Shown here piece after piece: positions 493 through 56,140 of a DNA stretch of 64,000 nt. The notes beneath the pieces were generated by a model, which had not been told where the DNA came from, did not search any database, and saw nothing but the letters and a program-made list of their open reading frames with translations. The first letter of the stretch is position 1. Each line of letters starts with the position of its first letter. The stretch lies in the sequence record OK272470.1. One strand, 5' to 3'. Position numbers and translations under genes: made by a program. The DNA comes from Escherichia phage JLBYU50.

Positions 493-501
493 GGGCAATG
501 T

Positions 502-843
502 ATGGAGCTAACAGAAGTATGGGATATCGCTAAAGAGGCGATTATCCCTCTTATTGGCGTAATCTGGGTGGTCTTCAAACAGAAGATAGATGATATGGCA
601 AGTGATTTGGATAAAATGGAAGACAAATACCGCGAACTAGAAAAGAAGTTGGTGTTTGTTGAATCCACTTATGCTACCAAAGCGGAACTTGCTCAAATGC
701 TTAACCAGATCAACTCTACATTAATGGCAAATAACACTGCCTTAGAACAGAAGATTGAAAAAATAATGGATTTAAAAAATGCTCCTGTTCAATTAATGTT
801 AGAGGAGATTACGAAGCGCACACAAAGTAAGGACAAAAATTAA
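502..843 (+). CDS. Hypothetical small protein with N-terminal hydrophobic helix and coiled-coil
   Basis: 113 aa ORF between tail genes, ends immediately before the next start (ATG overlap at 843). Hydrophobic stretch IIPLIGVIWVVF, then charged heptad-like region. Confidence 0.4.
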   Translation: MELTEVWDIAKEAIIPLIGVIWVVFKQKIDDMASDLDKMEDKYRELEKKLVFVESTYATKAELAQMLNQINSTLMANNTALEQKIEKIMDLKNAPVQLMLEEITKRTQSKDKN

Positions 844-3257: not shown

Positions 3258-3261
3258 TTAA

Positions 3262-3284
3262 AAAGGGGCGAAAGCCCCTTTATA
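3262..3284 (+). terminator. Rho-independent terminator after tailspike gene
   Basis: AGGGGC-GAAA-GCCCCT followed by TTATAAAA. Confidence 0.55.
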
Positions 3285-3298
3285 AAAGGAGTAGTAAA

Positions 3299-5260: not shown

Positions 5261-5263
5261 TCA

Positions 5264-5288
5264 AAGCCCCTTCGGGGGCTTATTGTTT
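5264..5288 (+). terminator. Rho-independent terminator after collagen-like fibre gene
   Basis: AGCCCC-TTCG-GGGGCT followed by TATTGTTT. Confidence 0.55.
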
Positions 5289-5299
5289 AAGGAGATTAA

Positions 5300-8119
5300 A
5301 TGTATCCTATTCCTTTATTTATGTCAACAACATCAGCTTCAGTAGTAACAGCTACATCTATAACCACTTCCTCTATTGGTATTGCAATAGTTGGTAGTAA
5401 AAAGCAACTGACATACACAGTTTCACCGGAAGATGGTGCGTTATTTGATATAGCTTTTTCATCTTCAGATAATACCAAAATGGTTATAGATAATAGTGGT
5501 ATGATGGAGTTTGTTGCCGAAGGTGGTTTTGATGCAATAATGACAGCTAAAAATAATTTAGGTGCTGTCTTAACTGATCAATCTGGTGGTTATGCTTCAG
5601 AATTAAGCGTGTACACTGAAAGTCTATCAGCTATGGATGTAGGCACTACTCAACAGTTGGTTGCTACAATCAGTCCAGAAGGTGCTAAAGATCTTCCAGA
5701 CATGGTAATTACGTACACCACAACAGATCCAGAAGTAGCTACTGTAAGCCCTACAGGATTAATAACTGCTCTTAAAGATGGTAATTGCCGTATAGGTTGT
5801 ACTGCAACTTATCAAGGAACAGTGGTGGCCTCTGATAGTTCTTATTTAGGTGTTAATGCTATTCCTGTTATTTCTAATGTAACAGCCGTGGCAAACAGCT
5901 ATGGAGACGTTCGTGTTGCTTGGGATGTAGCTGATCCGCTAGATGGTGATACTTATACTGTAGAAGTATTAGATTTAAGTAATAATAGTGTTCAGTGGAC
6001 TACAACAACCACGAATACTTACGCTTACTTTGATATCTCTGACTCTATTCCTCTTTATGGGTTTGCTCCAACATACCTTAAAATTAGCGTTAAGAGCACC
6101 AAAGCAGCAGCCGTTATCTTTAATAACTCAATAGCTACAGATGATTCGTTCATTAAAGAAGTTATTGTTTTTGCTGGACAAGATAACGTAAATGCACACT
6201 TTACAGAACTATCTGGTGCAAATAAAGCAGCAATGAGTAGCACAACAGCCCGTAATGCATATGCTACGCAACGTGGTTTAGCAAATGCTGAAGTTCTTCC
6301 GTTAAATACAGCTTCTGGATCATCAGCAGCAGATAAATATGCTGACGATAAAGCTGGAACAGGTACACCAGACAACTACTGGTATGATCTGGATAACACA
6401 GCAGATGGGCCATGCTTAACTAACTTTATCACTAAAGTCACACCTTATGCAAGTAAGGTTAAAGCCATTATTTGGGGACAAGGTGAAAATGATGCTGTAT
6501 CATCATCTTCAACTGTTGCAGGTAGATACAGTAACACTACACGTTACCATGATGCTACGATAGCTATCTTTGATAAGATGCGTACAATAGTTCCTGCTTC
6601 TCAAGCAAAAATTGTTTGGCAGATCCTGGGACGTTCTTATTTATATGGTGTAGAAGTTAATGGTGTGGATTGGCAGAAGTACAGAAATGTACAAAGAACC
6701 ATCTCTACAGCACGTGATGATGTTATCATTGGTTCTTGGGTAGATGGTGCTGAACGTTACAGTGGTTATGTTTATGAAGAAGGTATTGATGGTCGTATCC
6801 ATTATATTTCTTCTGTATACCAAACAGCAGCTACAAAACTTGCTAAATCAGCAGCAGACGGTACAGACCTAACATCAACGTCACCTGTTTGGGTTGATAT
6901 GGCTGTTCCAACTGGAGCAACAGCTACTTCCCAATCTAATCAAGATACAATTTTAGTATGGGATGCTCAAGGCTATAGTAAACACTACTTCCGTAATATT
7001 AACGTCTTAACAGCATCTGTATTAACTGAACAAACGCTTAATACGAACAGCTATACGTTTACCTATGCAGATCAAGTAGAACAATATGGTTTTGCAGCAG
7101 GAACTACTATATTTGATGTTGCATATTATGATGAAGCAAATGATGTGTTATCTCCTTTAGTACGTTTTAATGTTAACGTTACAGCAGGAACCGTAGAAGA
7201 TAAACCTGTAGTGATGGATTATGATTTAACACAAGAAACTCTTCCATCAGATGTTAAGGTTAATGGTGGGAACTCTTTTGCTCGTGCTTCTGGAGATACA
7301 CTTGTAGCCACTAACACCTTGGTTGCTCCGTTGGAGTATGTTGGCACTACCCCTGTAGGTAGACGTGTAACAGCTAACACAGCTACACAAATTTTTGTCA
7401 ACAACGCCTTAACAAGCGCAAGCCCGTGGGTAAAGACCAACTTAACTGTTTCAACTTCATCTGATAAATCTCCGGCTGGAACTACTGCCAATGTATTCAA
7501 ATTAACTCCGACTACAACATCTGGTAGTCATATCTTAACTGCAACATATACTAACGCGTACAACATATATGCCGGACGTAACTGGTCTGCCTCTGTTTTC
7601 TTGAAAGCGAACGGGATTACTAAGGCCAAACTAAGATTAAAAGCAGGAACTGAAGTTAATGAGGGTACTTTTGATTTAGCAGCAGGTACATTTACAGGAA
7701 GTGAAGCTAATATTATATCTATGGGTAACGGTTGGTATCGTGCTATTCTGCATAAAACAGGGATAGCCAAACAGTCCTCCATAAGTTTTGAAATAATTGC
7801 CTTGGATGCAACTGGTGCGGAGATTTTCGCTGGGGATGGTACTAGTAACCTTGCAGTTTGGTTGCCACAGCTTGAAGGTGCTCCTACAGGAGAAACATCA
7901 AAAGCTGGAGCGCCTTATGTCTGCACATATCCTGGAAGTTTAGGAGGAGTATCCTTCACTATACCAAGGAACGGACATACTGGTGTGGATGTTTACTATT
8001 CCAACGGGGACGTTGTTCGTGACGTATTCTCTGGTACGGCATCTACTTGGACAATAAACTACTCCAGCTTGTACGATTGGGGATCAGTCTTTATTACAGG
8101 TTTGAAATATTACGACTAA
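5300..8119 (+). CDS. Tail fibre / adhesin with Big_2 (bacterial Ig-like) domain and possible degenerate SASA/SGNH-esterase-like region
   Basis: 939 aa. Big_2-like segment (VITYTTTDPEVATVSPTGLITALKDGNCRIGCTATYQG). Motifs FAGQDNV and IIWGQGENDA resemble GQSN / QGE(S/N)D blocks of sialate-O-acetylesterase-type domains. Terminator at 8124-8151. Confidence 0.6.
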   Translation: MYPIPLFMSTTSASVVTATSITTSSIGIAIVGSKKQLTYTVSPEDGALFDIAFSSSDNTKMVIDNSGMMEFVAEGGFDAIMTAKNNLGAVLTDQSGGYASELSVYTESLSAMDVGTTQQLVATISPEGAKDLPDMVITYTTTDPEVATVSPTGLITALKDGNCRIGCTATYQGTVVASDSSYLGVNAIPVISNVTAVANSYGDVRVAWDVADPLDGDTYTVEVLDLSNNSVQWTTTTTNTYAYFDISDSIPLYGFAPTYLKISVKSTKAAAVIFNNSIATDDSFIKEVIVFAGQDNVNAHFTELSGANKAAMSSTTARNAYATQRGLANAEVLPLNTASGSSAADKYADDKAGTGTPDNYWYDLDNTADGPCLTNFITKVTPYASKVKAIIWGQGENDAVSSSSTVAGRYSNTTRYHDATIAIFDKMRTIVPASQAKIVWQILGRSYLYGVEVNGVDWQKYRNVQRTISTARDDVIIGSWVDGAERYSGYVYEEGIDGRIHYISSVYQTAATKLAKSAADGTDLTSTSPVWVDMAVPTGATATSQSNQDTILVWDAQGYSKHYFRNINVLTASVLTEQTLNTNSYTFTYADQVEQYGFAAGTTIFDVAYYDEANDVLSPLVRFNVNVTAGTVEDKPVVMDYDLTQETLPSDVKVNGGNSFARASGDTLVATNTLVAPLEYVGTTPVGRRVTANTATQIFVNNALTSASPWVKTNLTVSTSSDKSPAGTTANVFKLTPTTTSGSHILTATYTNAYNIYAGRNWSASVFLKANGITKAKLRLKAGTEVNEGTFDLAAGTFTGSEANIISMGNGWYRAILHKTGIAKQSSISFEIIALDATGAEIFAGDGTSNLAVWLPQLEGAPTGETSKAGAPYVCTYPGSLGGVSFTIPRNGHTGVDVYYSNGDVVRDVFSGTASTWTINYSSLYDWGSVFITGLKYYD

Positions 8120-46404: not shown

Positions 46405-46956
46405 ATGCGGATTACTGATAAGTATGTGTTCTTCTTTTCAGCAAAAGATGAATTTAGCAACTGGTATCTATCATCTTTTATTGAACCTTTAGCTCCCAAG
46501 TATAATAATTCTATTACAAGTTCTGTTGAATTTACTTGTGTGGAACAATATATGATGTGGAGAAAAGCATGTTTATTTTATGATTACAACATTGCATCTT
46601 CTATTTTAACCGGAGATCTAAGATATACAGGAGAAAAAGAACAAGCATATTATAAGCGACTAGGCAGATTAGTTAAAGATTATGATGAAGATACCTGGAC
46701 TTCTTTACGGGAGAAGATTGTCAAACGTGGTTTGTATCTTAAATACACACAAAATGAAGATCTCAAAAATAAACTTATAGCCTACGCAGATAAGGAGTTC
46801 GTAGAGGCAAGCCCTTATGATTCTATTTATGGTATCAAAATGGGGATGTGGGATCGGGACGTGGAAAATAAGGATTGTTGGAAAGGACAAAATCTTTTAG
46901 GAAAATGGCATACAGACCTTGCTGTTTATCTAAAAGCACAATCTGATATTTCCTGA
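46405..46956 (+). CDS. NADAR-family protein (YbiA-like)
   Basis: 183 aa. Blocks YVFFFSAKDEFSNWY, CVEQYMMWRKACLF, EASPYDSIYGI match NADAR/DUF1768 (F..FSNFY ... EQ.YM..KA ... EASP.D.IWGIG). Confidence 0.7.
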   Translation: MRITDKYVFFFSAKDEFSNWYLSSFIEPLAPKYNNSITSSVEFTCVEQYMMWRKACLFYDYNIASSILTGDLRYTGEKEQAYYKRLGRLVKDYDEDTWTSLREKIVKRGLYLKYTQNEDLKNKLIAYADKEFVEASPYDSIYGIKMGMWDRDVENKDCWKGQNLLGKWHTDLAVYLKAQSDIS

Positions 46957-47174
46957 TATTTTGAAAATTTTTATTTTTATAAAAAGGGGTGTGGGTTTCA
47001 TGTACGGAAATTCACCCTCTGCACAGTATATCCAGAGTAAGTAGTATTCTATACCCTGTTAATAAAGTATTTAATTTGTTTGTTGGACTATGGTATCTGA
47101 TCTTTAAAAGGCATACTATCTCTTAACTACTACTTATAACAGAACAGTAAAATCATTTTTATAAAAAGTACAAA

Positions 47175-47372
47175 ATTATTTAAAGTTTTTACAGATTTTT
47201 GGGTACAAATTTTGAAAATGAAAAGTTCAAGTTTGGTCAAAATTATTTAAAGTTTTTGTACGTATTTCTATTCAGATTTTGAAAATGAAAACTTCAATTT
47301 TTTAAAAATTCCCCAGTTTATTTAAAGTTTTTTTGCCTTTTTCCGTAGAAAAATCAAAAATGAAAAGTTCAA
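47175..47372. repeat. Three tandem ~65-bp direct repeats (iteron-like)
   Basis: Unit = ATTTAAAGTTTTT + ~20 nt + TTTGAAAATGAAAAGTTCAA, at 47175-47230, 47241-47297 and 47318-47372. Confidence 0.6.
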
Positions 47373-47395
47373 TTTCGTGTTTTTATAGGTGTGTT

Positions 47396-47455
47396 AATGA
47401 GAATCATTTTCGTTTGTAAATGAGAATCATTAGCAAATGAGAATTTTCTCATTTA
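47396..47455. promoter_or_regulatory. Three tandem Fur-box-like sites (AATGAGAATCATT)
   Basis: AATGAGAATCATT at 47396-47408 and 47419-47431, and palindromic AAATGAGAATTTTCTCATTT at 47436-47455. One mismatch from the GATAATCATT core of the enterobacterial Fur box. Confidence 0.4.
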
Positions 47456-47715
47456 GAGAATAACGCGCAGGGGTGGTGTTTGTCTCGCGCTCCCGTGTCC
47501 CCTCGCCATACAATAAGAATAGCATAACCAACAACAAAAGCAAGCGATTATTTTTATCTTTACATTTCTTTACAAATTTATTTTGGACGAGCTACCGGCG
47601 ATCAACCTTCCAACCAGTGCCCCCTGGTATGTTAGCCCCGCCTTTACGCCGTGGGGGTGGCGTTTCCTCTTCTGTATGTAAAACAGTATAAGCCCGATCC
47701 CTGGGCTTGTCAATA

Positions 47716-47982
47716 TTATTTTTTGTTTTCTTGCCAGGATAGGACACCTAACCAAAAATACATGTCGCCCCGCGCCCCTGGCGGGATCTTGCTTTCCCCG
47801 CCGCCACTGCAAGCCCATAGATAACCATTTACGAACGTATCAAAGTGATCTATCTCTTCCACCTTATGATCGCCCAGGTTGAGAACGGTTTCAACCTTTA
47901 AGCCCGTTGCGCTTGCTACCTGGTGCACCGTGCCGCCTTGCCAGCCCAATGAGTGCATGAGATGTAAAGGAGTATTTGTCAT
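47716..47982 (-). CDS. Hypothetical small protein in GC-rich segment (possible HTH regulator)
   Basis: 88 aa ORF, only candidate on the - strand in the early region. Segment GWQGGTVHQVASATGLKVETV is HTH-like. Could instead be non-coding. Confidence 0.25.
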   Translation of the reverse strand: MTNTPLHLMHSLGWQGGTVHQVASATGLKVETVLNLGDHKVEEIDHFDTFVNGYLWACSGGGESKIPPGARGDMYFWLGVLSWQENKK

Positions 47983-48093
47983 GGTATCGCCCTTTCTTTG
48001 ATGTGCGCCCTGGTTGGCGCGGTAGAAAGATAATAGCCGTTTCCTTTATAGATAGCAAGCAAAAAAGAAATGAAAAAAAGATTAAAAAAAATG

Positions 48094-48152
48094 GTTGACG
48101 TTCCTCACCTGGTAGCGTAGTATTCATCTTGTCGAGGGGGCAATAGTGCCGC
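48094..48152 (+). promoter_or_regulatory. Early promoter cassette 1 (TTGACG-17-TAGTAT) with imperfect GC hairpin
   Basis: -35 at 48094-48099, -10 at 48117-48122, imperfect palindrome GGGGCAATAGTGCCGC at about 48136-48152, then RBS and ATG 48177. Confidence 0.5.
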
Positions 48153-48176
48153 TCATAACAGAAGAGAGAAATAATC

Positions 48177-48449
48177 ATGGCATCATATAGCGCATCAATG
48201 ATCGTAACGGGTATCACTGGTAAACCTATGCGCGGTGGCGGATCTTTCGCTAACATCAACATTGACGGGCGTTTATCCCTGGACGCAGCGATCACAGTGG
48301 CACGGGAAACATTTAAAAAAGAATGTAATTTCAATAAACAAGATTATCTCGGTTTCGCTATTGAAAAAACCGCGCGCTTTGTGGATTATAAAAGCCCGAA
48401 AATGATCGACACTACACTAAAAGCGCAAGATGTAGCGTTTTTGCTTTAA
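48177..48449 (+). CDS. Hypothetical early protein
   Basis: 90 aa, preceded by cassette 1 and RBS agagag. Confidence 0.45.
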   Translation: MASYSASMIVTGITGKPMRGGGSFANINIDGRLSLDAAITVARETFKKECNFNKQDYLGFAIEKTARFVDYKSPKMIDTTLKAQDVAFLL

Positions 48450-48452
48450 GGT

Positions 48453-48513
48453 TTGACACTGAAAAATAATTGGGTAATATATACGACATAAGGCGGGGAA
48501 ATGGTTTCCCGCC
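48453..48513 (+). promoter_or_regulatory. Early promoter cassette 2 with palindrome GGCGGGGAAATGGTTTCCCGCC
   Basis: TTGACA 48453-48458, -10 TAATAT 48475-48480, palindrome 48492-48513, then RBS aaagggtaa and ATG 48536. Confidence 0.6.
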
Positions 48514-48535
48514 AAATCAAAGAAAGGGTAATGCA

Positions 48536-48898
48536 ATGAGCAAGCAAATCAATACTATCATGTTTAATCTGGTATCTTTCCGCGATGACGTGAAAAACCT
48601 TTCGCGTGATGCAGTGGATGCACGGATCGAAAGCTATCGCACACAGATCGCAACGTTACCGCTGAAACGTGATCAACATGCCGCTAATATGATGCTGGAT
48701 GCTATGATTAAAAAGATGATTCAGTGTGATATTACCCTGGCTTATGAATATGCTGGCGATCTCTTTGTAACATATAGCAAGCCCGTTCCAGGTATGAGCA
48801 CCACGGAAGAATTGCATGCCTTAAATCTGCGACAAGATGCATGGGATAACATGCGCCGTGTTATGGTATGGGTAGAAAGCGGTAAAATTTACGAATAA
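48536..48898 (+). CDS. Hypothetical early protein
   Basis: Start at MSKQINTIMF, chosen downstream of the promoter and palindrome. Confidence 0.45.
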   Translation: MSKQINTIMFNLVSFRDDVKNLSRDAVDARIESYRTQIATLPLKRDQHAANMMLDAMIKKMIQCDITLAYEYAGDLFVTYSKPVPGMSTTEELHALNLRQDAWDNMRRVMVWVESGKIYE

Positions 48899-48904
48899 AA
48901 ACGG

Positions 48905-48957
48905 TTGACATTGCACTAAAACCTGATAAGCTATCTTAAAGCGGGAACTATTCCCGC
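48905..48957 (+). promoter_or_regulatory. Early promoter cassette 3 with palindrome GCGGGAACTATTCCCGC
   Basis: TTGACA 48905-48910, -10 AAGCTA 48928-48933, palindrome 48941-48957. Confidence 0.55.
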
Positions 48958-48976
48958 TTACATAGGATAAAACTTT

Positions 48977-49123
48977 ATGAAACAATATGTAATGAGTATT
49001 CATACCAAAAACGGCGCTACTGTTACGACTCCGGCACGGTTTGCACTTGTAAACCGTTGCAAGAGACTAAAACGAGAGCTAAAAAATAACCGTGCAACGG
49101 GCTTTAAACGCTGGGGAGGATAA
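48977..49123 (+). CDS. Hypothetical small basic protein (48 aa)
   Basis: ATG 19 nt after the cassette 3 palindrome. Arg/Lys-rich. Not in the ORF track (under 60 aa). Confidence 0.35.
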   Translation: MKQYVMSIHTKNGATVTTPARFALVNRCKRLKRELKNNRATGFKRWGG

Positions 49124-49125
49124 TC

Positions 49126-49386
49126 TTGTTTTTTCTAAAAGTTTTTGATAATGTGATCGCTTTTGAACATGCTACAACGTTCGACCTGGCGAGATACGCT
49201 ATCAGGTTTAAAGATAATGTTTATCCCCGTGCTGGCGGCGGTTACACTATTTTTAATCATCGCAACGCGCAACTGACTGATGTAACTAATCCAGATCCTG
49301 GAGTGTATCGCATAGGCTGGCTACCGTCAAAAGACGCTGCAAGCATGTTTAAGGTGTGTAAACTACTAACAGAAGAGGCGAACTAG
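49126..49386 (+). CDS. Hypothetical early protein (TTG start)
   Basis: TTG start 5 nt after RBS GGAGGA. 86 aa. Confidence 0.35.
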   Translation: MFFLKVFDNVIAFEHATTFDLARYAIRFKDNVYPRAGGGYTIFNHRNAQLTDVTNPDPGVYRIGWLPSKDAASMFKVCKLLTEEAN

Positions 49387-49387
49387 C

Positions 49388-49942
49388 ATGGGGCGTGAAT
49401 ATGTGATCCAGTCCTGGGTAAAGCATGATGCTAATGATCCGCGCATAATACCAGATGACATGATCGATCACATGGTAGGGTATAGCGGGGAGCAGATAGG
49501 AAATCGAGCGGCAAAGAGCAACGGCAACACCAGGACGCGATCCGTTCGTCCTGGATGGCTGGCGAATGGTAACGCTGACATTGCAAGCGCCGCAGATCCA
49601 AGCGATGACGCTAAAAATAATCCCTTGTACAGCATTGATCCGGCTTTTAAGGTGTTGGAAGAGTATCCCGCTAAATTAGCCGCACTAGATAAGGCATACG
49701 AAGAAAAGCGCATGGCCTGGACTGTATACAACACCGCTAAAATGGTGCTAGATGCAAAACTAATTAAAGCCCAGGAGAAGATCAATAAACTTGTTACCAT
49801 AGCGCAAGAGGAAGACCAGGGCGACCAGGAGGAAGAGGAAGAAATCATGCCTACCCTGGAAGAGGAAGAGATCCAGCCATACATGCCGACGGAAGAGGAA
49901 AAAAGACAAGCCTTAAAAAATTATGAAAATTGCATTGTGTAA
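49388..49942 (+). CDS. Hypothetical protein with highly acidic C-terminal region
   Basis: 184 aa. C-terminal EEDQGDQEEEEEIMPTLEEEEIQPYMPTEEEK. Confidence 0.45.
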   Translation: MGREYVIQSWVKHDANDPRIIPDDMIDHMVGYSGEQIGNRAAKSNGNTRTRSVRPGWLANGNADIASAADPSDDAKNNPLYSIDPAFKVLEEYPAKLAALDKAYEEKRMAWTVYNTAKMVLDAKLIKAQEKINKLVTIAQEEDQGDQEEEEEIMPTLEEEEIQPYMPTEEEKRQALKNYENCIV

Positions 49943-49944
49943 GG

Positions 49945-50050
49945 GTTGACATATGCAAACAAGCCCCGTAATATGTACCACATAGAGCGGGGCAACTTCT
50001 CAAAGGTGAAATAAAAAATCAGTTGACACCTGAAATCAGTAAGCTATAAT
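49945..50050 (+). promoter_or_regulatory. Tandem early promoters 4a/4b
   Basis: TTGACA 49945-49950 with TAATAT 49969-49974; TTGACA 50023-50028 with TATAAT 50045-50050. GCCCCG/CGGGGC inverted repeat flanks the first -10. Confidence 0.5.
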
Positions 50051-50087
50051 GCTTATATAGATTGAAACATTACTAAGGAATAAAAGC

Positions 50088-50267
50088 ATGGCTATTATTG
50101 CGAAGACTGAGATCGTAGGTTTAAATTCTATCCTCCTGGCATATGAGGAAGCTATAGAAATGTATGTGGTTTCCTATGGTGATTATATCCGTGAATATAA
50201 TTCTATTGATCTAGCTTTTGAATGCTATATTCGCCAGGTAAATAAAGCATACGATGATTATCGTTAA
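50088..50267 (+). CDS. Hypothetical small early protein (59 aa)
   Basis: ATG after RBS aaggaataaaagc. Not in the ORF track (under 60 aa). Confidence 0.4.
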   Translation: MAIIAKTEIVGLNSILLAYEEAIEMYVVSYGDYIREYNSIDLAFECYIRQVNKAYDDYR

Positions 50268-50286
50268 AAGTTTTAGTCTTGTGCTA

Positions 50287-50315
50287 TTGACAACGAACGA
50301 TAGTACAAGCATAAT
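50287..50315 (+). promoter_or_regulatory. Early promoter 5 (TTGACA-17-CATAAT)
   Basis: TTGACA 50287-50292, -10 50310-50315; no palindrome. Confidence 0.45.
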
Positions 50316-50362
50316 AACTTTTATCGGGAACACTCCTAACTAATCAAAAGAGATTAAAGATT

Positions 50363-50728
50363 ATGGCTAAAAATATTAATGTTTCTGCTTATGCTACCCT
50401 GGCTAACGTTGCTAAAATTGAACTGTCCAGCATTGAAGCGGTACATATTAGCGCCCGTCGCTGGTTTCAAAAGTCTTATGGTAATACTTATTTCTCTTTG
50501 ATGGTTGACGTTGAGATCGGCGGTAAACTGATTGAAGTCGTTAACGTTCCGTTTCAATATGGTTATGGTGATCATTTCGATACCGTTGCCCTGGAAGAGT
50601 TTAGCAAGGTTATCAACCTGGAAGGTAAAGAGTTTTCAAATTATGCTTATCTTTCCCGTTTTTGCCGTGACAATGGGATCGCTGTATACAGTCATGCAAG
50701 CGATGTTAAACGTAAAAAAGATTTATAA
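50363..50728 (+). CDS. Hypothetical early protein
   Basis: 121 aa after RBS aaagagattaaag. Confidence 0.45.
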   Translation: MAKNINVSAYATLANVAKIELSSIEAVHISARRWFQKSYGNTYFSLMVDVEIGGKLIEVVNVPFQYGYGDHFDTVALEEFSKVINLEGKEFSNYAYLSRFCRDNGIAVYSHASDVKRKKDL

Positions 50729-50734
50729 AAAGCA

Positions 50735-50796
50735 TTGACAGCACGAATAAAAAGCGTAAAATGTTTCATATCAGGACGGGGGAATGGTTCCCCCGC
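50735..50796 (+). promoter_or_regulatory. Early promoter cassette 6 with palindrome CGGGGGAATGGTTCCCCCG
   Basis: TTGACA 50735-50740, -10 TAAAAT 50757-50762, palindrome about 50777-50796. Confidence 0.55.
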
Positions 50797-50816
50797 CTAT
50801 AACTAGGTATAATAAA

Positions 50817-51047
50817 ATGGCTAATATGTATATGACCGAAGTTAAAACCGTAAAAGATACTACTACCAATAAAACTACTTACTTACAGCGGATCTGCGGT
50901 GTATGGCAACGTATTAGTAAAGCAAAGTATTATAAATTAACATCATATGCTAATCGTTCGGATTCATTCAGTACTGAAATAAAAGGTAATAAAGTACACC
51001 AATACGGCACTTATTATTATTATAGCCTAGACGCGATTGCAATCTAA
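50817..51047 (+). CDS. Hypothetical early protein
   Basis: Start at MANMYMTE downstream of the palindrome. Tyr-rich C-terminus. Confidence 0.4.
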   Translation: MANMYMTEVKTVKDTTTNKTTYLQRICGVWQRISKAKYYKLTSYANRSDSFSTEIKGNKVHQYGTYYYYSLDAIAI

Positions 51048-51066
51048 GCATATTTTTAAAAAGTAC

Positions 51067-51125
51067 TTGCAAACTAGGTTTAAAGGCGTATAATGTTTTG
51101 CATAGAGAGCGGGAATAGTTCCCGC
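51067..51125 (+). promoter_or_regulatory. Early promoter cassette 7 with palindrome GCGGGAATAGTTCCCGC
   Basis: TTGCAA 51067-51072, TATAAT 51089-51094, palindrome 51109-51125. Confidence 0.6.
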
Positions 51126-51149
51126 CTCACTGAAAAAGAGATTAACATC

Positions 51150-51389
51150 ATGGCTAAATCTAAAATGTACAACGGTCACAAAAACAAAACTCATTGGAAT
51201 GTAAGCCTTTGGATTAATAACGATGAATCGTTATACTTATACGCTGTAGGTTTAATAAATGAGTGTGGCAATAAAGATAAAGCGGCGGATCTAATGTGCT
51301 ACAGATTAAAACAGGATGGGATCACTCATACACCTGATGGTTTCAAGTATAGTAAAACTGCAATCCGTGCCGCTATGGTTGGAATGTAA
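51150..51389 (+). CDS. Hypothetical early protein
   Basis: Start at MAKSKMYNGHK downstream of the palindrome. Confidence 0.45.
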   Translation: MAKSKMYNGHKNKTHWNVSLWINNDESLYLYAVGLINECGNKDKAADLMCYRLKQDGITHTPDGFKYSKTAIRAAMVGM

Positions 51390-51398
51390 TAAAAACAG

Positions 51399-51458
51399 TT
51401 GACAACGTTTTTTAATCTGATAAGATGTATCACATAGGGCGGGAAATGGTTTCCCGCC
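51399..51458 (+). promoter_or_regulatory. Early promoter cassette 8 with palindrome GGCGGGAAATGGTTTCCCGCC
   Basis: TTGACA 51399-51404, TAAGAT 51421-51426, perfect 9-3-9 palindrome 51438-51458. Confidence 0.6.
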
Positions 51459-51480
51459 AAATCAAAGAAAGGTTAACATT

Positions 51481-51708
51481 ATGGCTATCGTTATTGTTCG
51501 CGTATCCGGCACGGTTGGGATCTCCCAGGTAGTAGCAGTTATCACCGAGAAGAAAGGGGATGATCTTCACTCCTCCTTGAATAGCTGGGCGGTCGCTAAC
51601 TTTGGGCAATGGTCGAGCGTTGAGTACATCGAATCCTACCAGGTGCCAACGATTAGCCTAACCGATCTAAATGTTGATCGCTTGTTGTGCCTGGATCAAT
51701 TAAACTAA
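51481..51708 (+). CDS. Hypothetical early protein
   Basis: 75 aa after RBS aaagaaaggt. Confidence 0.45.
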   Translation: MAIVIVRVSGTVGISQVVAVITEKKGDDLHSSLNSWAVANFGQWSSVEYIESYQVPTISLTDLNVDRLLCLDQLN

Positions 51709-51726
51709 AAATAATATTGACAAGAT

Positions 51727-51783
51727 AACTAAAATCAGTAAAATGTAATGCATAGGGCGGCACTATTGCCGCCCCCTAGTGAG
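51727..51783 (+). promoter_or_regulatory. Early promoter cassette 9 with palindrome GGCGGCACTATTGCCGCC
   Basis: TTGACA 51727-51732, TAAAAT 51749-51754, palindrome 51766-51783. Confidence 0.6.
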
Positions 51784-51796
51784 AGAGATTATCAAA

Positions 51797-52012
51797 ATGG
51801 CTAATATCCGCACACTGTTAAAAAATGCAAGTCAAGTTTTATTTTCAGATGACGAGTATTTCAACAAAGACATTACAGGCGTGAAAAATTTAAAAGACGT
51901 GAAGGATGTTATCGGTATCCGTGGATCTTTACGTAAAGGTGACATATACGGTAACAAGGTGCAATATAAATTGTCAAAAGATTATGATTTTACTTTGACA
52001 ATTATTTCATAA
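51797..52012 (+). CDS. Hypothetical early protein
   Basis: Start at MANIRTLLKN after RBS gagagag. Confidence 0.45.
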   Translation: MANIRTLLKNASQVLFSDDEYFNKDITGVKNLKDVKDVIGIRGSLRKGDIYGNKVQYKLSKDYDFTLTIIS

Positions 52013-52018
52013 AACCGC

Positions 52019-52079
52019 TTGCAATACTGCAAAAATAAAGTAAACTGTATTCATTAAGGCGGTGGAATAGCCCACCGCC
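52019..52079 (+). promoter_or_regulatory. Early promoter cassette 10 with palindrome GGCGGTGGAATAGCCCACCGCC
   Basis: TTGCAA 52019-52024, TAAACT 52041-52046, palindrome 52058-52079. Confidence 0.55.
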
Positions 52080-52102
52080 TAACAAAGAGAAGAGGAAACA
52101 TC

Positions 52103-52273
52103 ATGATCACTTTCGCCACCCGTGAAGCCGCTCGCAACGTTGCACGTAAAGTTAACGCCGCCAACCTGGGCGCTACGCTTAAAGCCCCGGTGAAAGATGA
52201 ATCAGGAAAATGGATCTTTCCTGGTCTGCGTCACGCTGATAAGCTGGGAACATTAACGTTAAAAAACAAATAA
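52103..52273 (+). CDS. Hypothetical small early protein (56 aa)
   Basis: ATG after RBS agaggaaaca. Not in the ORF track (under 60 aa). Confidence 0.4.
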   Translation: MITFATREAARNVARKVNAANLGATLKAPVKDESGKWIFPGLRHADKLGTLTLKNK

Positions 52274-52280
52274 TATCCGT

Positions 52281-52339
52281 TTGACAGTAGCATCATTTAT
52301 AAGTAAAGTAACAACAACGGCGGGAAATGGTTTCCCGCC
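52281..52339 (+). promoter_or_regulatory. Early promoter cassette 11 with palindrome GGCGGGAAATGGTTTCCCGCC
   Basis: TTGACA 52281-52286, TAAAGT 52304-52309, palindrome 52319-52339 (identical to cassettes 2 and 8). Confidence 0.6.
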
Positions 52340-52359
52340 ATCAATAAAGAGATAAGATT

Positions 52360-52719
52360 ATGAAATCAGTAAAAGCAATTAAAACTTACATTGTGTCGGC
52401 TATTTCTTTTGATGGTACTACAACCGAAAAAGAAAAGATCACCGAACTGATGCGCCGTTTTAACTCTGAATACTGGTATCCCGATAATCAAAAACGTTAC
52501 AATTATAACGTGATCAAGGCAATAGCCTCATGGTTACAAGGTTTACCGTCAGAAGTCAATATTGCTTTTGATTATAACGAGATCGATCACTTGTTAATTG
52601 AATGGAAGTACATAAAAGAAACAAGCAAAGAAACAACCGTTACCCGTGAGCGGGAAAATTATTGGTTATATATTGCAAGCATGATCGTAACCCTGGCAAA
52701 ACAGCATAACGTGGCGTAA
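52360..52719 (+). CDS. Hypothetical early protein
   Basis: 119 aa after RBS aaagagataag. Confidence 0.45.
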   Translation: MKSVKAIKTYIVSAISFDGTTTEKEKITELMRRFNSEYWYPDNQKRYNYNVIKAIASWLQGLPSEVNIAFDYNEIDHLLIEWKYIKETSKETTVTRERENYWLYIASMIVTLAKQHNVA

Positions 52720-52734
52720 TTAAGAGGAAAAAAC

Positions 52735-52872
52735 ATGAACGCATCACAGCAGATCGAAAAATTCAACCGCAACAAAGCGCGTAAAAATTGGAATGAAGAG
52801 ATCACCAAGAAAGGCGATAAGCGGAACAAAACAAAAAGAGATCGCAGCACAAAAAGACACTGGAACGAATAA
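52735..52872 (+). CDS. Hypothetical small highly basic protein (45 aa)
   Basis: ATG after RBS aagaggaaaaaac. Lys/Arg-rich. Followed by terminator 52877-52900. Confidence 0.3.
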   Translation: MNASQQIEKFNRNKARKNWNEEITKKGDKRNKTKRDRSTKRHWNE

Positions 52873-52876
52873 CAAA

Positions 52877-52900
52877 AAGGGCGCAATAAGCGCCCTTTTA
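52877..52900 (+). terminator. Rho-independent terminator-like hairpin
   Basis: AAGGGCGC-AATAA-GCGCCCTT followed by TTTA. Confidence 0.5.
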
Positions 52901-52990
52901 GCTTATATAGAGGCTTGTTACCCATAGGCAATGGTAACGCCAGGGCAAGCCTATAAATCAACGTTAGACAGCTTTACAGGAGCTTTAAAA

Positions 52991-53173
52991 ATGAAATTAG
53001 ACGAAATAAGCAAGGCACTAGCCCAGGGGCAAAGGTTATGCGCCCGATATCGTGATCAATATGGCTTCATAACTAGCGGCGTGATCCTGGGGATTGAAGG
53101 TAATAAAATTTTTATTGACACGTTGAAAAACGTTGTATATAGTGACAATATAATCTCAATAAAACATATATGA
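52991..53173 (+). CDS. Hypothetical small protein
   Basis: Start at MKLDEISKAL after RBS acaggag. Confidence 0.35.
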   Translation: MKLDEISKALAQGQRLCARYRDQYGFITSGVILGIEGNKIFIDTLKNVVYSDNIISIKHI

Positions 53174-53181
53174 GGCAAGAA

Positions 53182-53583
53182 ATGAAAAAATTATTGATCG
53201 CTGGTTTAATCTCTTTTGGCATGGTTGGAACATCTAGCGCGGCGATATCCTCCACAGTAGCAGAATTAAGCGCCGTTGATGCAATGGAAAACGTCATGAT
53301 CATTAATAACGCGATCCCCGATGAAATCATGGAGGATTCACACATGATCGCTTATGGTGCTGTTACACAATTAACGGCAAAAATAGATAAATCTATTGTT
53401 AATGGCTTAAATGAAGATGTACCATGTGAAATTATTACCAGTGTGCTAACGACTCAAAATTTTACGCCGTGGTTAAAAAGTATTCAAAAGGTACACAGCA
53501 CCGCCGCAGATCGTAGCAATGAAAAACTAGTGTCAGCACTTGCAACGTATACCCTAGCAAAATGCACCGAAATAAAAGATTGA
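53182..53583 (+). CDS. Secreted hypothetical protein
   Basis: Start at MKKLLIAGLISFGMVGTSSAA (signal peptide). Confidence 0.45.
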   Translation: MKKLLIAGLISFGMVGTSSAAISSTVAELSAVDAMENVMIINNAIPDEIMEDSHMIAYGAVTQLTAKIDKSIVNGLNEDVPCEIITSVLTTQNFTPWLKSIQKVHSTAADRSNEKLVSALATYTLAKCTEIKD

Positions 53584-53607
53584 CAATATAGAAAGCACGT
53601 TATAAGA
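53580..53607 (+). promoter_or_regulatory. Promoter 12 (TTGACA-16-TATAAG)
   Basis: TTGACA 53580-53585 overlapping the upstream stop, -10 at 53602-53607. Confidence 0.4.
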
Positions 53608-53630
53608 TACACACAACAAAGGAGAACTAC

Positions 53631-53933
53631 ATGAACGGCATAGCTAAAACGTTTTTTCTTTTTTCTGGTGTAAATGATCCATCAATAAAAGTCGATAGTG
53701 TAAAAGAAAACAATACTATCACCGCTAAATTGTTTCAAGATGAAACAAATAACGTGCTAATCATTAATCTTAAAGAAATAACGAAAGGTTATTATACTAT
53801 TGCTTACCATGCGATCTATCATGCTGGTACTAGCGAGGAAGTGCAAACAAGCAACAACGAAAGCGCGGCGCTACCTGGTGATCTGGTGTTGGGCGTTATC
53901 AGTTTAATTGTCAATGATTTTTTTAAGGAGTAA
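53631..53933 (+). CDS. Hypothetical protein
   Basis: 100 aa after RBS aaaggagaac. Confidence 0.4.
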   Translation: MNGIAKTFFLFSGVNDPSIKVDSVKENNTITAKLFQDETNNVLIINLKEITKGYYTIAYHAIYHAGTSEEVQTSNNESAALPGDLVLGVISLIVNDFFKE

Positions 53934-54116
53934 AACCATGCCCTATTTACATTTATTTTTCGGTATCTTATTGACAGGATCTTTTTTCTTCTGTATGCTT
54001 GTTTCTATTGTAAACCACGTTTTAAGACATTAAGGAAACAGCATGAAAATTATTCCCGTACAGTATAGCGTAATAAATCCAGCATATGAGGAAGGAAGGA
54101 AAACAAGCATGGCTTT

Positions 54117-54461
54117 ATGTTGTATTACTACTATAGCCATGTTATTATACATTGTGTTTTAATAGGTTTTATAGTTGTACGCTTTACAGGCTTTACAATT
54201 TTTTTGTTATGCTTTAAAATATATCTTGAAAACGGCAAAGGCCGCAAACAAAAGGGTAAAACTTATGCGCTGAATCATGCGTTTATCGGCAAGGTTGAAT
54301 ATAGAGAAATGATCGACGAGGAAACAGGGCAAGATTTTAGCGATTATGTTTATATTCGTTCAGAAACATTAGCCGAACGTTTGATCGAGAAAATGAAAGC
54401 AAAAAATAAAATTAATTTAGCTCATTGGATTGATATAACAAACGATTCTGCTTATCAGTAA
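54117..54461 (+). CDS. Hypothetical protein with N-terminal hydrophobic segment (start uncertain)
   Basis: 114 aa ORF ending just before terminator 54478-54504. Overlaps an alternative-frame 39-aa ORF (54043-54162) that has a better RBS. Confidence 0.35.
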   Translation: MLYYYYSHVIIHCVLIGFIVVRFTGFTIFLLCFKIYLENGKGRKQKGKTYALNHAFIGKVEYREMIDEETGQDFSDYVYIRSETLAERLIEKMKAKNKINLAHWIDITNDSAYQ

Positions 54462-54477
54462 ATAACATTTCATACCA

Positions 54478-54504
54478 GGGCGCACAAAGCGCCCTTTCTT
54501 TTTA
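54478..54504 (+). terminator. Rho-independent terminator
   Basis: AGGGCGC-ACAAA-GCGCCCT followed by TTCTTTTT. Confidence 0.6.
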
Positions 54505-54707: not shown

Positions 54708-54780
54708 AAATGATAATCATTCTTATTTATAGCTGATTATTTATGCAATAAACTGCATAATGCAATAATGATAATCATTC
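54708..54780. promoter_or_regulatory. Two Fur-box-like sites
   Basis: AAATGATAATCATTC at 54708-54722 and AATAATGATAATCATTC at 54764-54780. Each contains the 13-nt core AATGATAATCATT of the GATAATGATAATCATTATC consensus. Confidence 0.45.
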
Positions 54781-55154
54781 TTAACTTATGACCATCTAAC
54801 CTATAAAATAATAAGTTATCTAACTAAATTAAAGCTAACTATTTCACCTTTATTTATAACTTACTGTTACTATCTCATTGATAACCTTATATTAAACAAC
54901 AATAACTAATATAAATCATTATTAAGCTAACTATAATCTATCTAACCTTTAAAACTATAACTATAATCTATCTAATTGTTGCACAAAGTAACTATTAAAT
55001 TGTTAGTAACATTACTAAATAATTAATATCCTATTTATTTATGATCTAATCTTTACCTTCCTATTTATCACCTAACTAATCATTTCATACAATAATTATA
55101 ACAAGAAATATAATTCGCAAGCGTATCATTAGCAGCCTATGCCGGACACATAGG

Positions 55155-55303
55155 CGGCTAATAATAACGCAACTACACACCCCACATAATAACCATCACC
55201 GATAGTTATTATTTGTGCTTATGTAGCTTGCAACAATTGCAAGCGCAACAATATACATGGTATATTGTATCCCTTACATTGTTGCGGTGCGTTATTATTA
55301 GCT
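55155..55303. repeat. Nested inverted repeats in AT-rich non-coding region
   Basis: GCTAATAATAACGC (about 55156-55169) pairs with GCGTTATTATTAGC (about 55285-55298). Inner CGCAACAAT...ATTGTTGCG and CAATATAC-ATG-GTATATTG palindromes. Confidence 0.5.
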
Positions 55304-55602
55304 AATGTTTGGAACATTGGCTATAATATAAGCTATCCAATAATAAACATAGTGGATAATGACACTGATGATCATAATGCGCCACCTTCCAGGGGGCGCT
55401 ATGTGAACACAAAAAATCTTTCTTGTCAAGAAAAATATTACCATTATTGCGCAAAATTATTTATATATGAATAGATGGTTTTTCATACTATTATTGTTAT
55501 TTGTCGGGCATAACTATCCCTATTTGTTGAGCCTACTTTCTTAAAAGCGCAATAAATCAGAATTATCTTGATTTTTAGTGAGTTTTATAGTATAGAAAAT
55601 AT

Positions 55603-55621
55603 GCAAATGATAATCATTATC
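55603..55621. promoter_or_regulatory. Near-consensus Fur box
   Basis: GCAAATGATAATCATTATC matches GATAATGATAATCATTATC at 17 of 19 positions. Confidence 0.5.
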
Positions 55622-55788
55622 AGCTATCTTCCACGGGTGGCACTATTTCACGCCAGATCATTTCATTTGGCAAGGTGTATATAGATGTTTAGACTTGCCA
55701 AGCCATTGATTTACTTAGAATTTATCTGTTTTGTTGTGAGTAGTACCTTTCTTGCTCAGAAAATAATCAAAAGTCTTATAAGTCATTG

Positions 55789-55820
55789 AATGATAATGCA
55801 AATGATAATTATTCTCATTG
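55789..55820. promoter_or_regulatory. Overlapping Fur-box-like repeats
   Basis: GAATGATAATGCAAATGATAATTATTCTCATTG: two AATGATAAT half-sites followed by TCTCATT, the partner of the 47.4 kb boxes. Confidence 0.4.
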
Positions 55821-56111
55821 ATATTTGAGGGGGACGGTCGGCAGAAATCGGGGGCGCTGAAAATCGCGTTAAGCACCTCTCGCAAGCGAGCAGTATTTTG
55901 CGGCAAGTTATTGATATTATTGACTTTACGCTTATGAAAAGGGGGCGTGTCGAAATAAATCGGGTATACCGGAAAATTTTTGTGGCATAGATATTTATTT
56001 GTCTATATTATGTACAAAGGGGTGTGTTAAAAATAATAGGTATATATAGAATAATTGATAGGGAAATCCTATACTAAATCCTTCATTAATGATGTTCCTA
56101 TGTTGCTGTTC

Positions 56112-56140
56112 TTGTAACAGATGAAAAGATGCTATATGAT
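56112..56140 (+). promoter_or_regulatory. Candidate promoter (TTGTAA-17-TATGAT)
   Basis: -35 56112-56117, -10 56135-56140, upstream of RBS aaggag and ATG 56178. Confidence 0.35.

Follow-up and report, generated by a model that had tools for sequence, protein, structure and literature searches.

Positions 48100–54500 of Escherichia phage JLBYU50 were analysed within a 64,000-nucleotide (nt) stretch of sequence record OK272470.1 (this whole stretch is hereafter the window, and all positions refer to it). The interval is occupied by an array of small genes with densely spaced predicted promoters. Compared to the rest of the window (the backbone), this array is a true compositional island that is enriched in G+C in its left third only, and that is set apart over both halves by its CpG, tetranucleotide and codon usage.

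Gene content and cassette anatomy of the array

Sequence matches identified the window as part of a coliphage of the phi92-like genus Justusliebigvirus (subfamily Stephanstirmvirinae). A total of 287 phage records matched 48100–54500, the top ones being Justusliebigvirus with ~95–96% identity across nearly the full interval, and scans of viral contigs yielded few additional relatives. Annotation of the relatives Paula and alia places phi92 gp226–gp241 at the corresponding position, a row of small plus-strand hypothetical genes, upstream of which lies a ~1.2-kb stretch with a single small minus-strand open reading frame (ORF). Array synteny was kept in Paula, alia, ESCO32, inny, PaulScherrer, A150 and ESCO13. 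No transfer RNA (tRNA) genes were found across the 64-kb window. Four records classified as Justusliebigvirus and 95.6% identical to the array region (MG065639, MG065645, MG065656 and MG065689) are named 'Campylobacter phage' with Campylobacter jejuni as host; these host labels are doubtful.

The features of the array and of the ORF to its left are given below, with lengths in amino acids (aa). CpG O/E is the observed-to-expected ratio of CpG, GC3 is the G+C fraction at third codon positions, PeSL stands for promoter-early stem-loop and SD for a Shine-Dalgarno sequence.

47716–47982, minus strand: conserved 88-aa ORF (phrog_19316; GC 49.8%, GC3 0.54)
48095–48123, plus strand: predicted first rightward promoter of the array (TTGACG-17-TAGTAT)
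48177–48449, plus strand: 90-aa gene, phi92 gp226 equivalent (phrog_8099; CpG O/E 1.71; synonymous identity to ESCO13 0.90)
48453–48535, plus strand: PeSL-like cassette (TTGACA-16-TAATAT, hairpin GGCGGGGAAATGGTTTCCCGCC, SD, ATG; repeat families D2 and D3)
48536–48898, plus strand: 120-aa gene, 'membrane protein' in relatives (phrog_7352; common to rV5-like and jumbo phages)
48977–49123, plus strand: 48-aa gene (phrog_8393), with a promoter and GCGGGAACTATTCCCGC hairpin upstream
49126–49386, plus strand: 86-aa gene, gp229 equivalent (phrog_17947)
49388–49942, plus strand: 184-aa gene, gp230 equivalent (phrog_16605; GC 47%, GC3 0.50; acidic C-terminal tail)
49946–50050, plus strand: two predicted tandem promoters (TTGACA-17-TAATAT with a remnant hairpin, and TTGACA-16-TATAAT)
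50088–50267, plus strand: 59-aa gene (phrog_9374; missing in 2 of 8 close relatives)
50363–50728, plus strand: 121-aa gene, gp231 equivalent (phrog_6246; homologues in Vequintavirinae arrays)
50784–51047, plus strand: 87-aa cassette gene (phrog_5293; in 3 of 9 Justusliebigvirus compared)
51093–51389, plus strand: DUF7249 gene (phrog_871; Pfam DUF7249)
51399–51480, plus strand: PeSL-like cassette (41-nt hairpin repeat of family D2, 93% identical to 48491–48531, with more copies in relatives)
51481–51708, plus strand: 75-aa gene, gp233 equivalent (phrog_13850; GC3 0.58)
51797–52012, plus strand: 71-aa gene, gp234 equivalent (phrog_12266)
52103–52273, plus strand: 56-aa gene, gp235 equivalent (phrog_13689)
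52360–52719, plus strand: 119-aa gene, gp236 equivalent (phrog_11100)
52735–52872, plus strand: 45-aa gene, Pfam Phage_1_1 (T7 gene 1.1 family; GC3 0.52)
52931–53173, plus strand: 80-aa gene (phrog_25271)
53170–53583, plus strand: 137-aa gene (phrog_27054)
53631–53933, plus strand: 100-aa gene, gp240 equivalent (phrog_10737)
54117–54461, plus strand: 114-aa ORF, Pfam Phage_30_8 (T4 gp30.8 family), spanning a deletion junction at 54254–54267
54477–54495, plus strand: intrinsic-terminator-like hairpin (AGGGCGCACAAAGCGCCCT) followed by a T-run

By consensus match, 13 plus-strand sigma-70-like sites scoring at least 10/12 were found inside 48.4–54.2 kb, and such sites were sparse elsewhere. On the strength of this promoter consensus, the array genes are presumed to be expressed early. 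At least seven cassettes shared one layout, in which a conserved gTAtcACATAG comes after the -10 hexamer, next to it a GC-rich GGCGGG-loop-CCCGCC-type hairpin, and then a Shine-Dalgarno sequence and the ATG. The promoter and hairpin modules are themselves repeated (families D2 and D3), with cassettes of a promoter and a 5' GC-hairpin at 48453–48535, 48895–48976, 51399–51480, 51717–51796, 52040–52102 and 52281–52359. Stem-loops at the 5' ends of Escherichia coli mRNAs are established stabilisers. The cassette hairpin, which has no T-run after it, coincides with the predicted mRNA 5' end and, by analogy, may stabilise the message more than it terminates transcription. The hairpin motif GCGGGAAnnnTTCCCGC was also found 5' of a homologous gene (around 3935) in the 356-kb jumbo coliphage EC.P1. 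Both there and at 51093, gene callers have translated the hairpin as a spurious N-terminal extension, MF[CY]IESGN[ST]SR; the start of ORF 51093–51389 is probably later than annotated, because its first ~15 codons overlap the cassette hairpin.

All 19 array proteins fell in PHROGs of unknown function, and the only Pfam matches were to the T7 gp1.1 family, the T4 gp30.8 family and DUF7249, none of which is functionally annotated. These matches speak neither for nor against the anti-host or anti-defence roles suggested in the earlier note on this DNA. The match of 52735–52872 to Phage_1_1 had E = 1.6e-10 and 41.7 bits (cut-off 21). The gp230 equivalent (49388–49942) is the biggest array gene and the G+C-richest on the plus strand. 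An AlphaFold2 model of its product had a mean pLDDT (predicted local distance difference test) of 68.8 and a pTM (predicted template-modelling score) of 0.37, with a single confidently predicted helical hairpin (residues 86–144); an invariant N-terminal GYSGEQxGxR falls in a low-confidence part of the model, and the C-terminus carries a tandem EEE-rich repeat. Homologues of gp230 were confined to Stephanstirmvirinae-like phages and contigs, many of ~150 kb. The 71-aa protein of 51797–52012 is named 'phosphoribosylpyrophosphate synthetase' in GenBank relatives, including alia, inny and ESCO32. This protein had no Pfam match and belongs to a PHROG of unknown function, so the synthetase name looks like a propagated annotation error.

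CpG and tetranucleotide signature

Tetranucleotide signatures were compared as strand-symmetric usage deviations. The array (48100–54500) was a clear outlier in this comparison between blocks, which the earlier note on this DNA, made from the sequence alone, had proposed as a check: its correlation with the whole window was r = 0.33, vs. 0.86 ± 0.02 for other equal-sized blocks. At finer resolution, 3.2-kb blocks correlated with the whole window at r = 0.70–0.82, except for 48001–51200 (0.30) and 51201–54400 (0.32), and the adjoining blocks were intermediate. The signature was driven by CpG-containing tetramers, with O/E values in the array relative to elsewhere of 1.56 vs. 0.30 for CGCG, 2.7 vs. 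0.60 for GCGC and 2.9 vs. 0.62 for CCGC; CATG and GATC were also more frequent in the array, and CTGC and CTTC less so. CCGG was still depleted inside the array (O/E 0.43). For the backbone, O/E values were 0.21 for CCGG, 0.30 for CGCG and 0.51 for CATG.

CpG O/E was 1.21 in each half of the array and 0.63–0.67 elsewhere, and delimited an island from ~47.0 to ~55.5 kb, with a rise at ~47.0–47.5 kb and a fall at ~55.5–56 kb. Each of the 19 array genes had a CpG O/E of at least 0.87, relative to 0.68 for backbone coding sequences (CDS). When only coding DNA was considered, CpG O/E in the array and the backbone was 1.77 vs. 1.21 at codon positions 1–2, 1.05 vs. 0.45 at positions 2–3 and 1.18 vs. 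0.61 across codons, and the tetranucleotide correlation between array CDS and backbone CDS was r = 0.23. Intergenic CpG O/E was 0.58 in the backbone and 0.88 in the array, the latter below the value for array coding DNA. Taken together, the coding-only, codon-boundary, intergenic and per-gene results indicate that the signal is neither noise, nor an effect of the hairpins, nor purely translational. Two other blocks of small genes, at 37–43 kb and 55–64 kb, were backbone-like (r = 0.85–0.86; CpG O/E 0.63–0.67).

Codon usage

For the codon tests, array gene coordinates were curated against the annotation of relatives. The statement in the earlier note that codon choice differs here (GCC, CTG and CGC being named) held over the whole interval. 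Mean GC3 per gene was 0.390 for 18 array genes, compared to 0.289 for 71 background ORFs (Mann-Whitney P = 9e-7), and synonymous codons were heterogeneous between the array and the rest (chi-square 340 on 41 degrees of freedom). Of the named codons, GCC rose from 0.08 to 0.12/0.17, CTG from 0.16 to 0.25/0.19 and CGC from 0.12 to 0.31/0.27, and GGC, AGC, CCG, ACG and ATC were also more frequent in the array. The backbone favours T-ending codons, and the array has more codons ending in C or G. The contrast persisted relative to other blocks of small genes, at 37–42.6 kb and 54.5–64 kb (P = 0.0005–0.027), and was significant for the right half of the array alone (GC3 0.381, P = 8e-5).

A per-codon log-likelihood ratio of E. 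coli-like vs. phage-like usage was calculated with an approximate E. coli codon table, and gave +0.07 and -0.03 for the two halves of the array compared to -0.27 to -0.40 for every other gene class. Codon usage of all 19 array genes was intermediate between phage-like and E. coli-like. Codon bias was weaker in the array, with an effective number of codons of 51.9 vs. 44.2 ± 1.4 for size-matched backbone samples.

Phage tRNAs were considered as a cause of the codon shift and rejected. The relative alia encodes 15 tRNAs, and their cognate codons were not enriched in the backbone (0.423 vs. 0.420 for codons assigned to U34, and 0.279 vs. 0.360, in the wrong direction, for those assigned to G34).

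Bulk G+C content

The description of the array in the earlier note as distinctly more GC-rich than the rest of the window applied to its left third and failed for the remainder. Overall, G+C was 39.3% in 48100–54500 and 37.5% in the remaining window, which places the array ~1.5 standard deviations above the mean of sliding 6.4-kb blocks (mean 37.6%, standard deviation 1.05%), a level that was reached by 10% of blocks and exceeded by block 1–6401 (39.5%). The true peak was narrower and shifted to the left, at 47350–50050 (43.7%), with the G+C-richest 2-kb block of the window at 47595–49594 (45.1%), and 50050–54500 was at background level (37.3%). Bulk G+C is normal in the right half, despite its raised GC3, because codon positions 1 and 2 are G+C-poorer there (0.381 vs. 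0.411). About a quarter of the real peak (47.45–48.1 kb) lay to the left of the interval first described and is not promoter-array DNA; the highest local values (46–51%, at 47.5–48.1 kb) were due to the minus-strand ORF 47716–47982 and to a non-coding element at ~47450–47680. No tRNA or known RNA genes were found behind the peak in a tRNA search of the window or with Rfam 15 models.

The same signature in other phages

The signature of the array was shared with arrays from other genera. Its correlation was 0.86 with that of ESCO13 (Phapecoctavirus), 0.70 with that of rV5 (for which the region compared was an array of small genes), 0.64 with that of KB57 (Mydovirus) and 0.61 with that of PBES02 (Certrevirus). 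The window array correlated at r = 0.54 with 50 kb of E. coli K-12, and at 0.23 with its own backbone, 0.11 with 50 kb of rV5 backbone and 0.12 with PBES02 backbone; the window and rV5 backbones correlated at r = 0.81 with each other. Correlations with E. coli ranged over 0.54–0.61 for the array signature and 0.30–0.35 for the backbone. CpG O/E was 1.0–1.2 in all four arrays compared, and the backbone value was 0.63–0.67 in Justusliebigvirus, Phapecoctavirus and rV5 (rV5 0.63) and 0.93 in PBES02. A ~3.8-kb segment of the array that is deleted here had a CpG O/E of 1.18 in Paula, and the G+C-rich genes of the array were likewise G+C-rich in ESCO13. The presence of the signature in arrays of other genera therefore makes it a conserved trait of the presumed early compartment in two subfamilies, and not an event in one genome.

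Gene exchange within the array

The earlier note had suggested that the region was acquired horizontally or is under different selection. Of this, acquisition as a single block was contradicted by the synteny of relatives, and cassette-wise exchange was borne out by synonymous identities and by a chimeric junction. Relative to ESCO13, ten array genes had synonymous-site identities of 0.65–0.92, and backbone genes were saturated (0.38–0.48). The highest values were 0.92 (47716–47982), 0.90 (48177–48449), 0.83, 0.81 and 0.78, with saturated genes interspersed. This mosaic goes beyond what constraint at the protein level would give, so alleles have moved recently between Justusliebigvirus and Phapecoctavirus. 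Protein identity to ESCO13 was likewise a mosaic in the array (34–98%), compared to 57–64% for the flanking genes. ORF 47716–47982, at 0.92 of synonymous sites, was 97.7% identical to its ESCO13 counterpart in protein sequence, and its best Vequintavirinae-like protein matches were just ~42–47% identical.

In a comparison of synteny with related phages, the array kept its position in all of them and single cassettes varied. Among nine ~95%-identical Justusliebigvirus, 50784–51047 was present in 3, 50088–50267 was absent from 2 and 48177–48449 was replaced in 1. Where Paula lacks 50784–51047 it has a single chimeric cassette, the promoter half of which corresponds to the upstream cassette of the window and the hairpin half to the downstream one. 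Judged from its sequence, this chimera is the product expected from recombination between cassettes. A further ~3.8 kb of array (equivalents of phi92 gp241–gp247 and part of gp248) is missing here and was present in 8 of 8 Justusliebigvirus compared. The deletion junction at 54254–54267 falls on a 14-nt overlap, GGGTAAAACTTATG, and ORF 54117–54461 spans it, so that this ORF is probably a chimeric gene, one that still matches the T4 gp30.8 family.

Some array genes have relatives far outside the genus. Gene 48536–48898 shared 70–77% DNA identity with rV5-like phages and with ~350-kb jumbo phages, with a G+C content of 41–43% in all three backgrounds, and cross-family homologues were found for 52735–52872 (T7 gp1.1 family) and 54117–54461 (T4 gp30.8 family). 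No blastn matches to 47350–50050 were found in 5,426 complete E. coli genomes; a plasmid collection was not searched. No integrase or other mobility family was matched in or beside the array (Pfam, PHROGs), and the window contained no tRNAs. Thus, of the properties of a genomic island, atypical composition was found, and absence or a different site in relatives, a donor and mobility signatures were not. The interpretation in the earlier note was therefore supported in part, with exchange proceeding one gene at a time in a pool of phage cassettes and not by block acquisition of an island.

Borders of the array

The array is flanked by non-coding regions in which the following features were predicted.

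46957–47375, no strand assigned: AT-rich non-coding left border (GC 23–30%), without an ORF in the annotation of relatives
47155–47375, no strand assigned: three ~70-nt direct repeats (family D1; period 67 in Tandem Repeats Finder)
47393–47455, no strand assigned: three Fur-box-like palindromes (AATGAGAATCATT...), of which 47393–47411 matches the Fur consensus at 16/19
47450–47678, minus strand: non-coding GC-rich element and predicted P1 transcript, containing the promoter-like site P2
47543–47538 (-35) and 47521–47516 (-10), minus strand: conserved promoter-like site P2
47685–47713, minus strand: sigma-70-like promoter P1, predicted to read leftward (TTGACA-17-TATACT, 11/12 match)
54709, 54767, 55606 and 55807, no strand assigned: right-border Fur-box-like palindromes (spans 54709–54782, 55603–55621 and 55788–55822)
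54714–56120, no strand assigned: right-border non-coding region of ~1.4 kb (GC 31%)
54790–55110, no strand assigned: AT-rich CTAAC-type short repeats at the right border

The element at ~47450–47680 recurred at 70–85% DNA identity in Stephanstirmvirinae and in several genera of Vequintavirinae, with 245 phage records in all, and is mostly unannotated there. With P1 included, the conserved stretch covers 47436–47713. Every reading frame across it was broken by insertions or deletions in the alignments. The hexamers of P1 and their 17-nt spacing were kept in 23 sequences, in which the spacer sequence varied. One hairpin in the element showed compensatory changes, with one pair being G-C in 9 sequences and A-U in 8 and two more pairs changed on both sides. 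The folding energy of the element was no better than that of shuffled sequences (z -1.4 to +1.4), and with Rfam 15 there was no hit in the window at gathering thresholds, only chance-level hits in 46900–48250; a tRNA or transfer-messenger RNA was not found either. A stable structured non-coding RNA was thus not upheld for this element, given its shuffle-level folding energy and covariation in one hairpin only. Possible identities for the element are a small RNA, a leader, or a portion of a control region or origin. Some Seunavirus-like records, among them Salmonella phage PQ002170 (1–304) and Enterobacter phage EC152 (395–538), start only a few hundred bases from the conserved element, and in one such record an 'attL' repeat is annotated at 12–91; such starts might mark a physical genome end or a convention for opening records.

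The left-border palindromes and repeats lie downstream of the minus-strand element, and the palindromes are conserved in Vequintavirinae. The 19-bp Fur consensus (GATAATGATAATCATTATC) was matched at 16–17 of 19 positions at 47393, 54764 and 55603. Across the window, there were 4 hits with no more than 3 mismatches, compared to 0.03 expected, and the core motif occurred 7 times, compared to 0.5 expected. The border repeats at 47155–47375 and 54790–55110 had a G+C of 22–30%; in sequence they resemble DNA-unwinding elements or iterons, and they are candidates for origin DNA. Tandem promoters that read into AT-rich repeats recall origins activated by transcription, for example T4 oriF and the primary origin of T7, and, by this analogy, the origin likeness of the left-border promoters and repeats is a lead. 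One speculative reading of the border sequences, to which we give little weight, is that a Fur-gated iron-sensing switch or a transcription-activated origin couples the onset of development in virulent enterobacterial myophages to host physiology, and that the island is an insulated 'entry module'. If so, the array would be bracketed by two Fur-box-like control regions, and the left tandem promoters would drive a non-coding transcript into AT-rich iteron-like repeats. Nothing specific on non-coding RNA, origin or Fur control was found in the literature on rV5-like and phi92-like phages; the rV5 genome paper shows no more than a box labelled 'non-coding', and its skew analysis failed to place the origin.

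Explanations for the composition of the array

Flux through a shared pool of cassettes is, in our judgement, probably the main cause of the composition of the array. The array would be a hyperplastic early-gene region of ~19 small genes, mostly each in its own cassette of promoter, stem-loop, Shine-Dalgarno sequence and ORF. Cassettes would be continually gained, lost and replaced via recombination at the repeated promoter and stem-loop sequences, with co-infecting large enterobacterial myophages (Justusliebigvirus, Phapecoctavirus, Vequintavirinae and others) as exchange partners. With such continual turnover, the array would draw on the shared pool and would therefore not come to match the backbone in composition. 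A further contribution may come from distinct selection on genes whose expression depends on host machinery that is still unmodified. That gene flux causes the signature is something we infer from the exchange observed; flux and selection could act together, and the present data distinguish between them only in part.

Several observations weigh against flux as the main cause. Array and backbone G+C were 39, 41, 43 and 52% vs. 38, 39, 44 and 51% per phage, such that the G+C of each array follows its own backbone, which fits better with long residence than with a common pool. Array genes that are ancestral to the subfamily carried the signature here and in ESCO13 (CpG O/E 1.19), and their orthologues in Klebsiella phage 05F01 did not (0.72); this pattern could equally reflect selection or another force that acts on the whole region in particular lineages. 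Only a few array genes had detectable homologues across subfamilies. When rare alleles were polarised among 9 Justusliebigvirus to give the direction of substitution, third-position changes in GC-rich array genes numbered 30 from G or C to A or T vs. 18 in the opposite direction, a difference that was not significant, and the estimated equilibrium GC3 was ~0.36 for the array and ~0.23 for the flanks. This higher equilibrium in the array hints at a sustained force.

Selection is the strongest of the alternatives, and we regard it as possible, although rather unlikely, that it is the principal cause. Under this explanation, immediate-early genes, for which transcription and translation in the first minutes depend on a host machinery not yet modified, are kept near the codon and dinucleotide usage of the host, and later genes fit the phage-modified cell, including phage tRNAs; use of phage tRNAs by late genes has been proposed for Sf14 (PMC12482277). 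Consistent with this, the log-likelihood ratio of the array was nearer to E. coli usage (+0.07/-0.03 vs. -0.27 to -0.40 in other classes), the correlation of the array with the E. coli signature was 0.54–0.61 compared to 0.30–0.35 for the backbone, ancestral array genes retained the signature in two genera, and the estimated equilibrium GC3 was above that of the flanks. Codon differences between early and late genes were also found in half of the phages tested previously (PMC5683454). However, the backbone showed no enrichment of the cognate codons of the 15 alia tRNAs, the array had a weaker rather than a stronger codon bias, and the Klebsiella phage orthologues were unshifted. The CpG contrast extended across codon boundaries (0.61 vs. 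1.18) and was accompanied by a low value in backbone intergenic DNA (0.58), and hence is not purely translational. Moreover, constraint on proteins or codons is unable to yield synonymous identities of 0.8–0.9 between genera.

It is also conceivable, but improbable, that the backbone is the unusual part, with a DNA-level constraint (such as avoidance of CG-containing sites targeted by restriction or defence, or a bias arising in packaging or replication) depleting CpG, CGCG, CCGG and GCGC and the array being exempt. The backbone was indeed depleted in CpG (O/E 0.63–0.67 in coding and 0.58 in intergenic DNA), as well as in CCGG (0.21), CGCG (0.30) and CATG (0.51), and the rV5 backbone was equally depleted (0.63) and similar in signature (r = 0.81). 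Yet avoidance of restriction should protect the first-expressed DNA most, the exemption was uneven, since CCGG remained at 0.43 in the array, and we know of no mechanism that would exempt 8 kb within one molecule.

It appears very improbable that a GC-rich island was taken up in one recent event from an E. coli chromosome, prophage or plasmid, and for the chromosome and its prophages the idea is contradicted by the present results. G+C of 44–51% at 47.5–50 kb is near that of E. coli and codons are shifted towards E. coli usage, but 47350–50050 had no blastn match in 5,426 E. coli genomes (the plasmid collection was not searched), gp230 homologues occurred only in Stephanstirmvirinae-like phages and contigs, the array was syntenic in relatives with its GC-rich genes GC-rich in Phapecoctavirus too, and neither tRNAs in the window nor a mobility-family match in the array was found. 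An artefact of repeated promoters and GC-rich hairpins, or noise from short genes, is hardly credible, for although the repeated GGCGGG...CCCGCC hairpins add CCGC and CGCC tetramers, coding DNA alone gave the same outcome (r = 0.23), array intergenic CpG (0.88) was below that of array coding DNA, 19 of 19 genes were individually above the backbone value, and other blocks of small genes were backbone-like (r = 0.85–0.86, CpG 0.63–0.67).

These results show the genome of a large virulent coliphage as two compartments that evolve differently, a CpG-poor, codon-biased backbone that is inherited vertically and a promoter-rich, host-like array that exchanges cassettes across genera. PeSL-type modular shuffling would thereby be extended beyond T4-type phages. 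Segmentation by CpG and tetranucleotide usage could serve to mark out early or accessory arrays automatically in phi92-like and rV5-like phages, two groups in wide use in therapy collections. The array flags fast-evolving accessory genes and would be a natural place to search for candidate anti-defence or host-takeover genes. Composition-based prediction of hosts, or detection of horizontal gene transfer, will misread such arrays.

Comparison with known systems

Hyperplastic regions with cassettes of PeSLs and ORFan genes have been described for T4-type phages (Arbiol et al. 2010, PMC2839356; Comeau et al. 2014, PMC4122927). The array resembles these in its dense intergenic modules, each with a strong sigma-70-like promoter and a stem-loop of a G-run and a C-run, in a stem-loop placement after the -10 hexamer that is among those described in PMC2839356, and in its small genes of unknown function. 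It also resembles them in the cassette-bounded insertions and deletions between near-identical phages and in the chimeric cassette at an empty site. It differs in that the phage that carries it is a member of the Stephanstirmvirinae, with Vequintavirinae relatives, and is not T4-type, in that cassette activities and mini-circles would here be predictions from sequence, and in that the stem-loop is at the predicted mRNA 5' end with no T-run. GC content was not mentioned in the first PeSL paper (PMC2839356), as judged by a text search, and the contrast in CpG and tetranucleotides is what the present analysis adds.

A classical genomic island shares with the array an atypical composition with sharp borders; the array differs by its synteny, by having no donor or mobility match in the searches made, and by gene-wise exchange. 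The host-takeover module of Bacillus phage SPO1 and the T5 pre-early region are compact runs of ~20 small genes with many strong host-sigma promoters and large non-coding neighbours. The array shares with them a compact run of small genes, many predicted host-sigma promoters and adjoining non-coding regions, but has no sequence homology to either.

An early/late dichotomy in codon usage was reportedly described in T4 by Cowe and Sharp in 1991. A dichotomy of this type was also analysed across phages by Mioduser, Goz & Tuller (2017, PMC5683454), and the array is similar in that its presumed early genes differ synonymously from other genes and are nearer to host usage. It differs in that the contrast here also involves CpG across codon boundaries and tetranucleotides, has no tRNA explanation and is accompanied by evidence for gene exchange, and in that temporal class was taken from promoters. 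The phenomenon is thus of known kinds, namely PeSL-type hyperplastic regions and the early/late codon dichotomy, and what is new is the lineage in which it occurs and the conserved CpG compartment.

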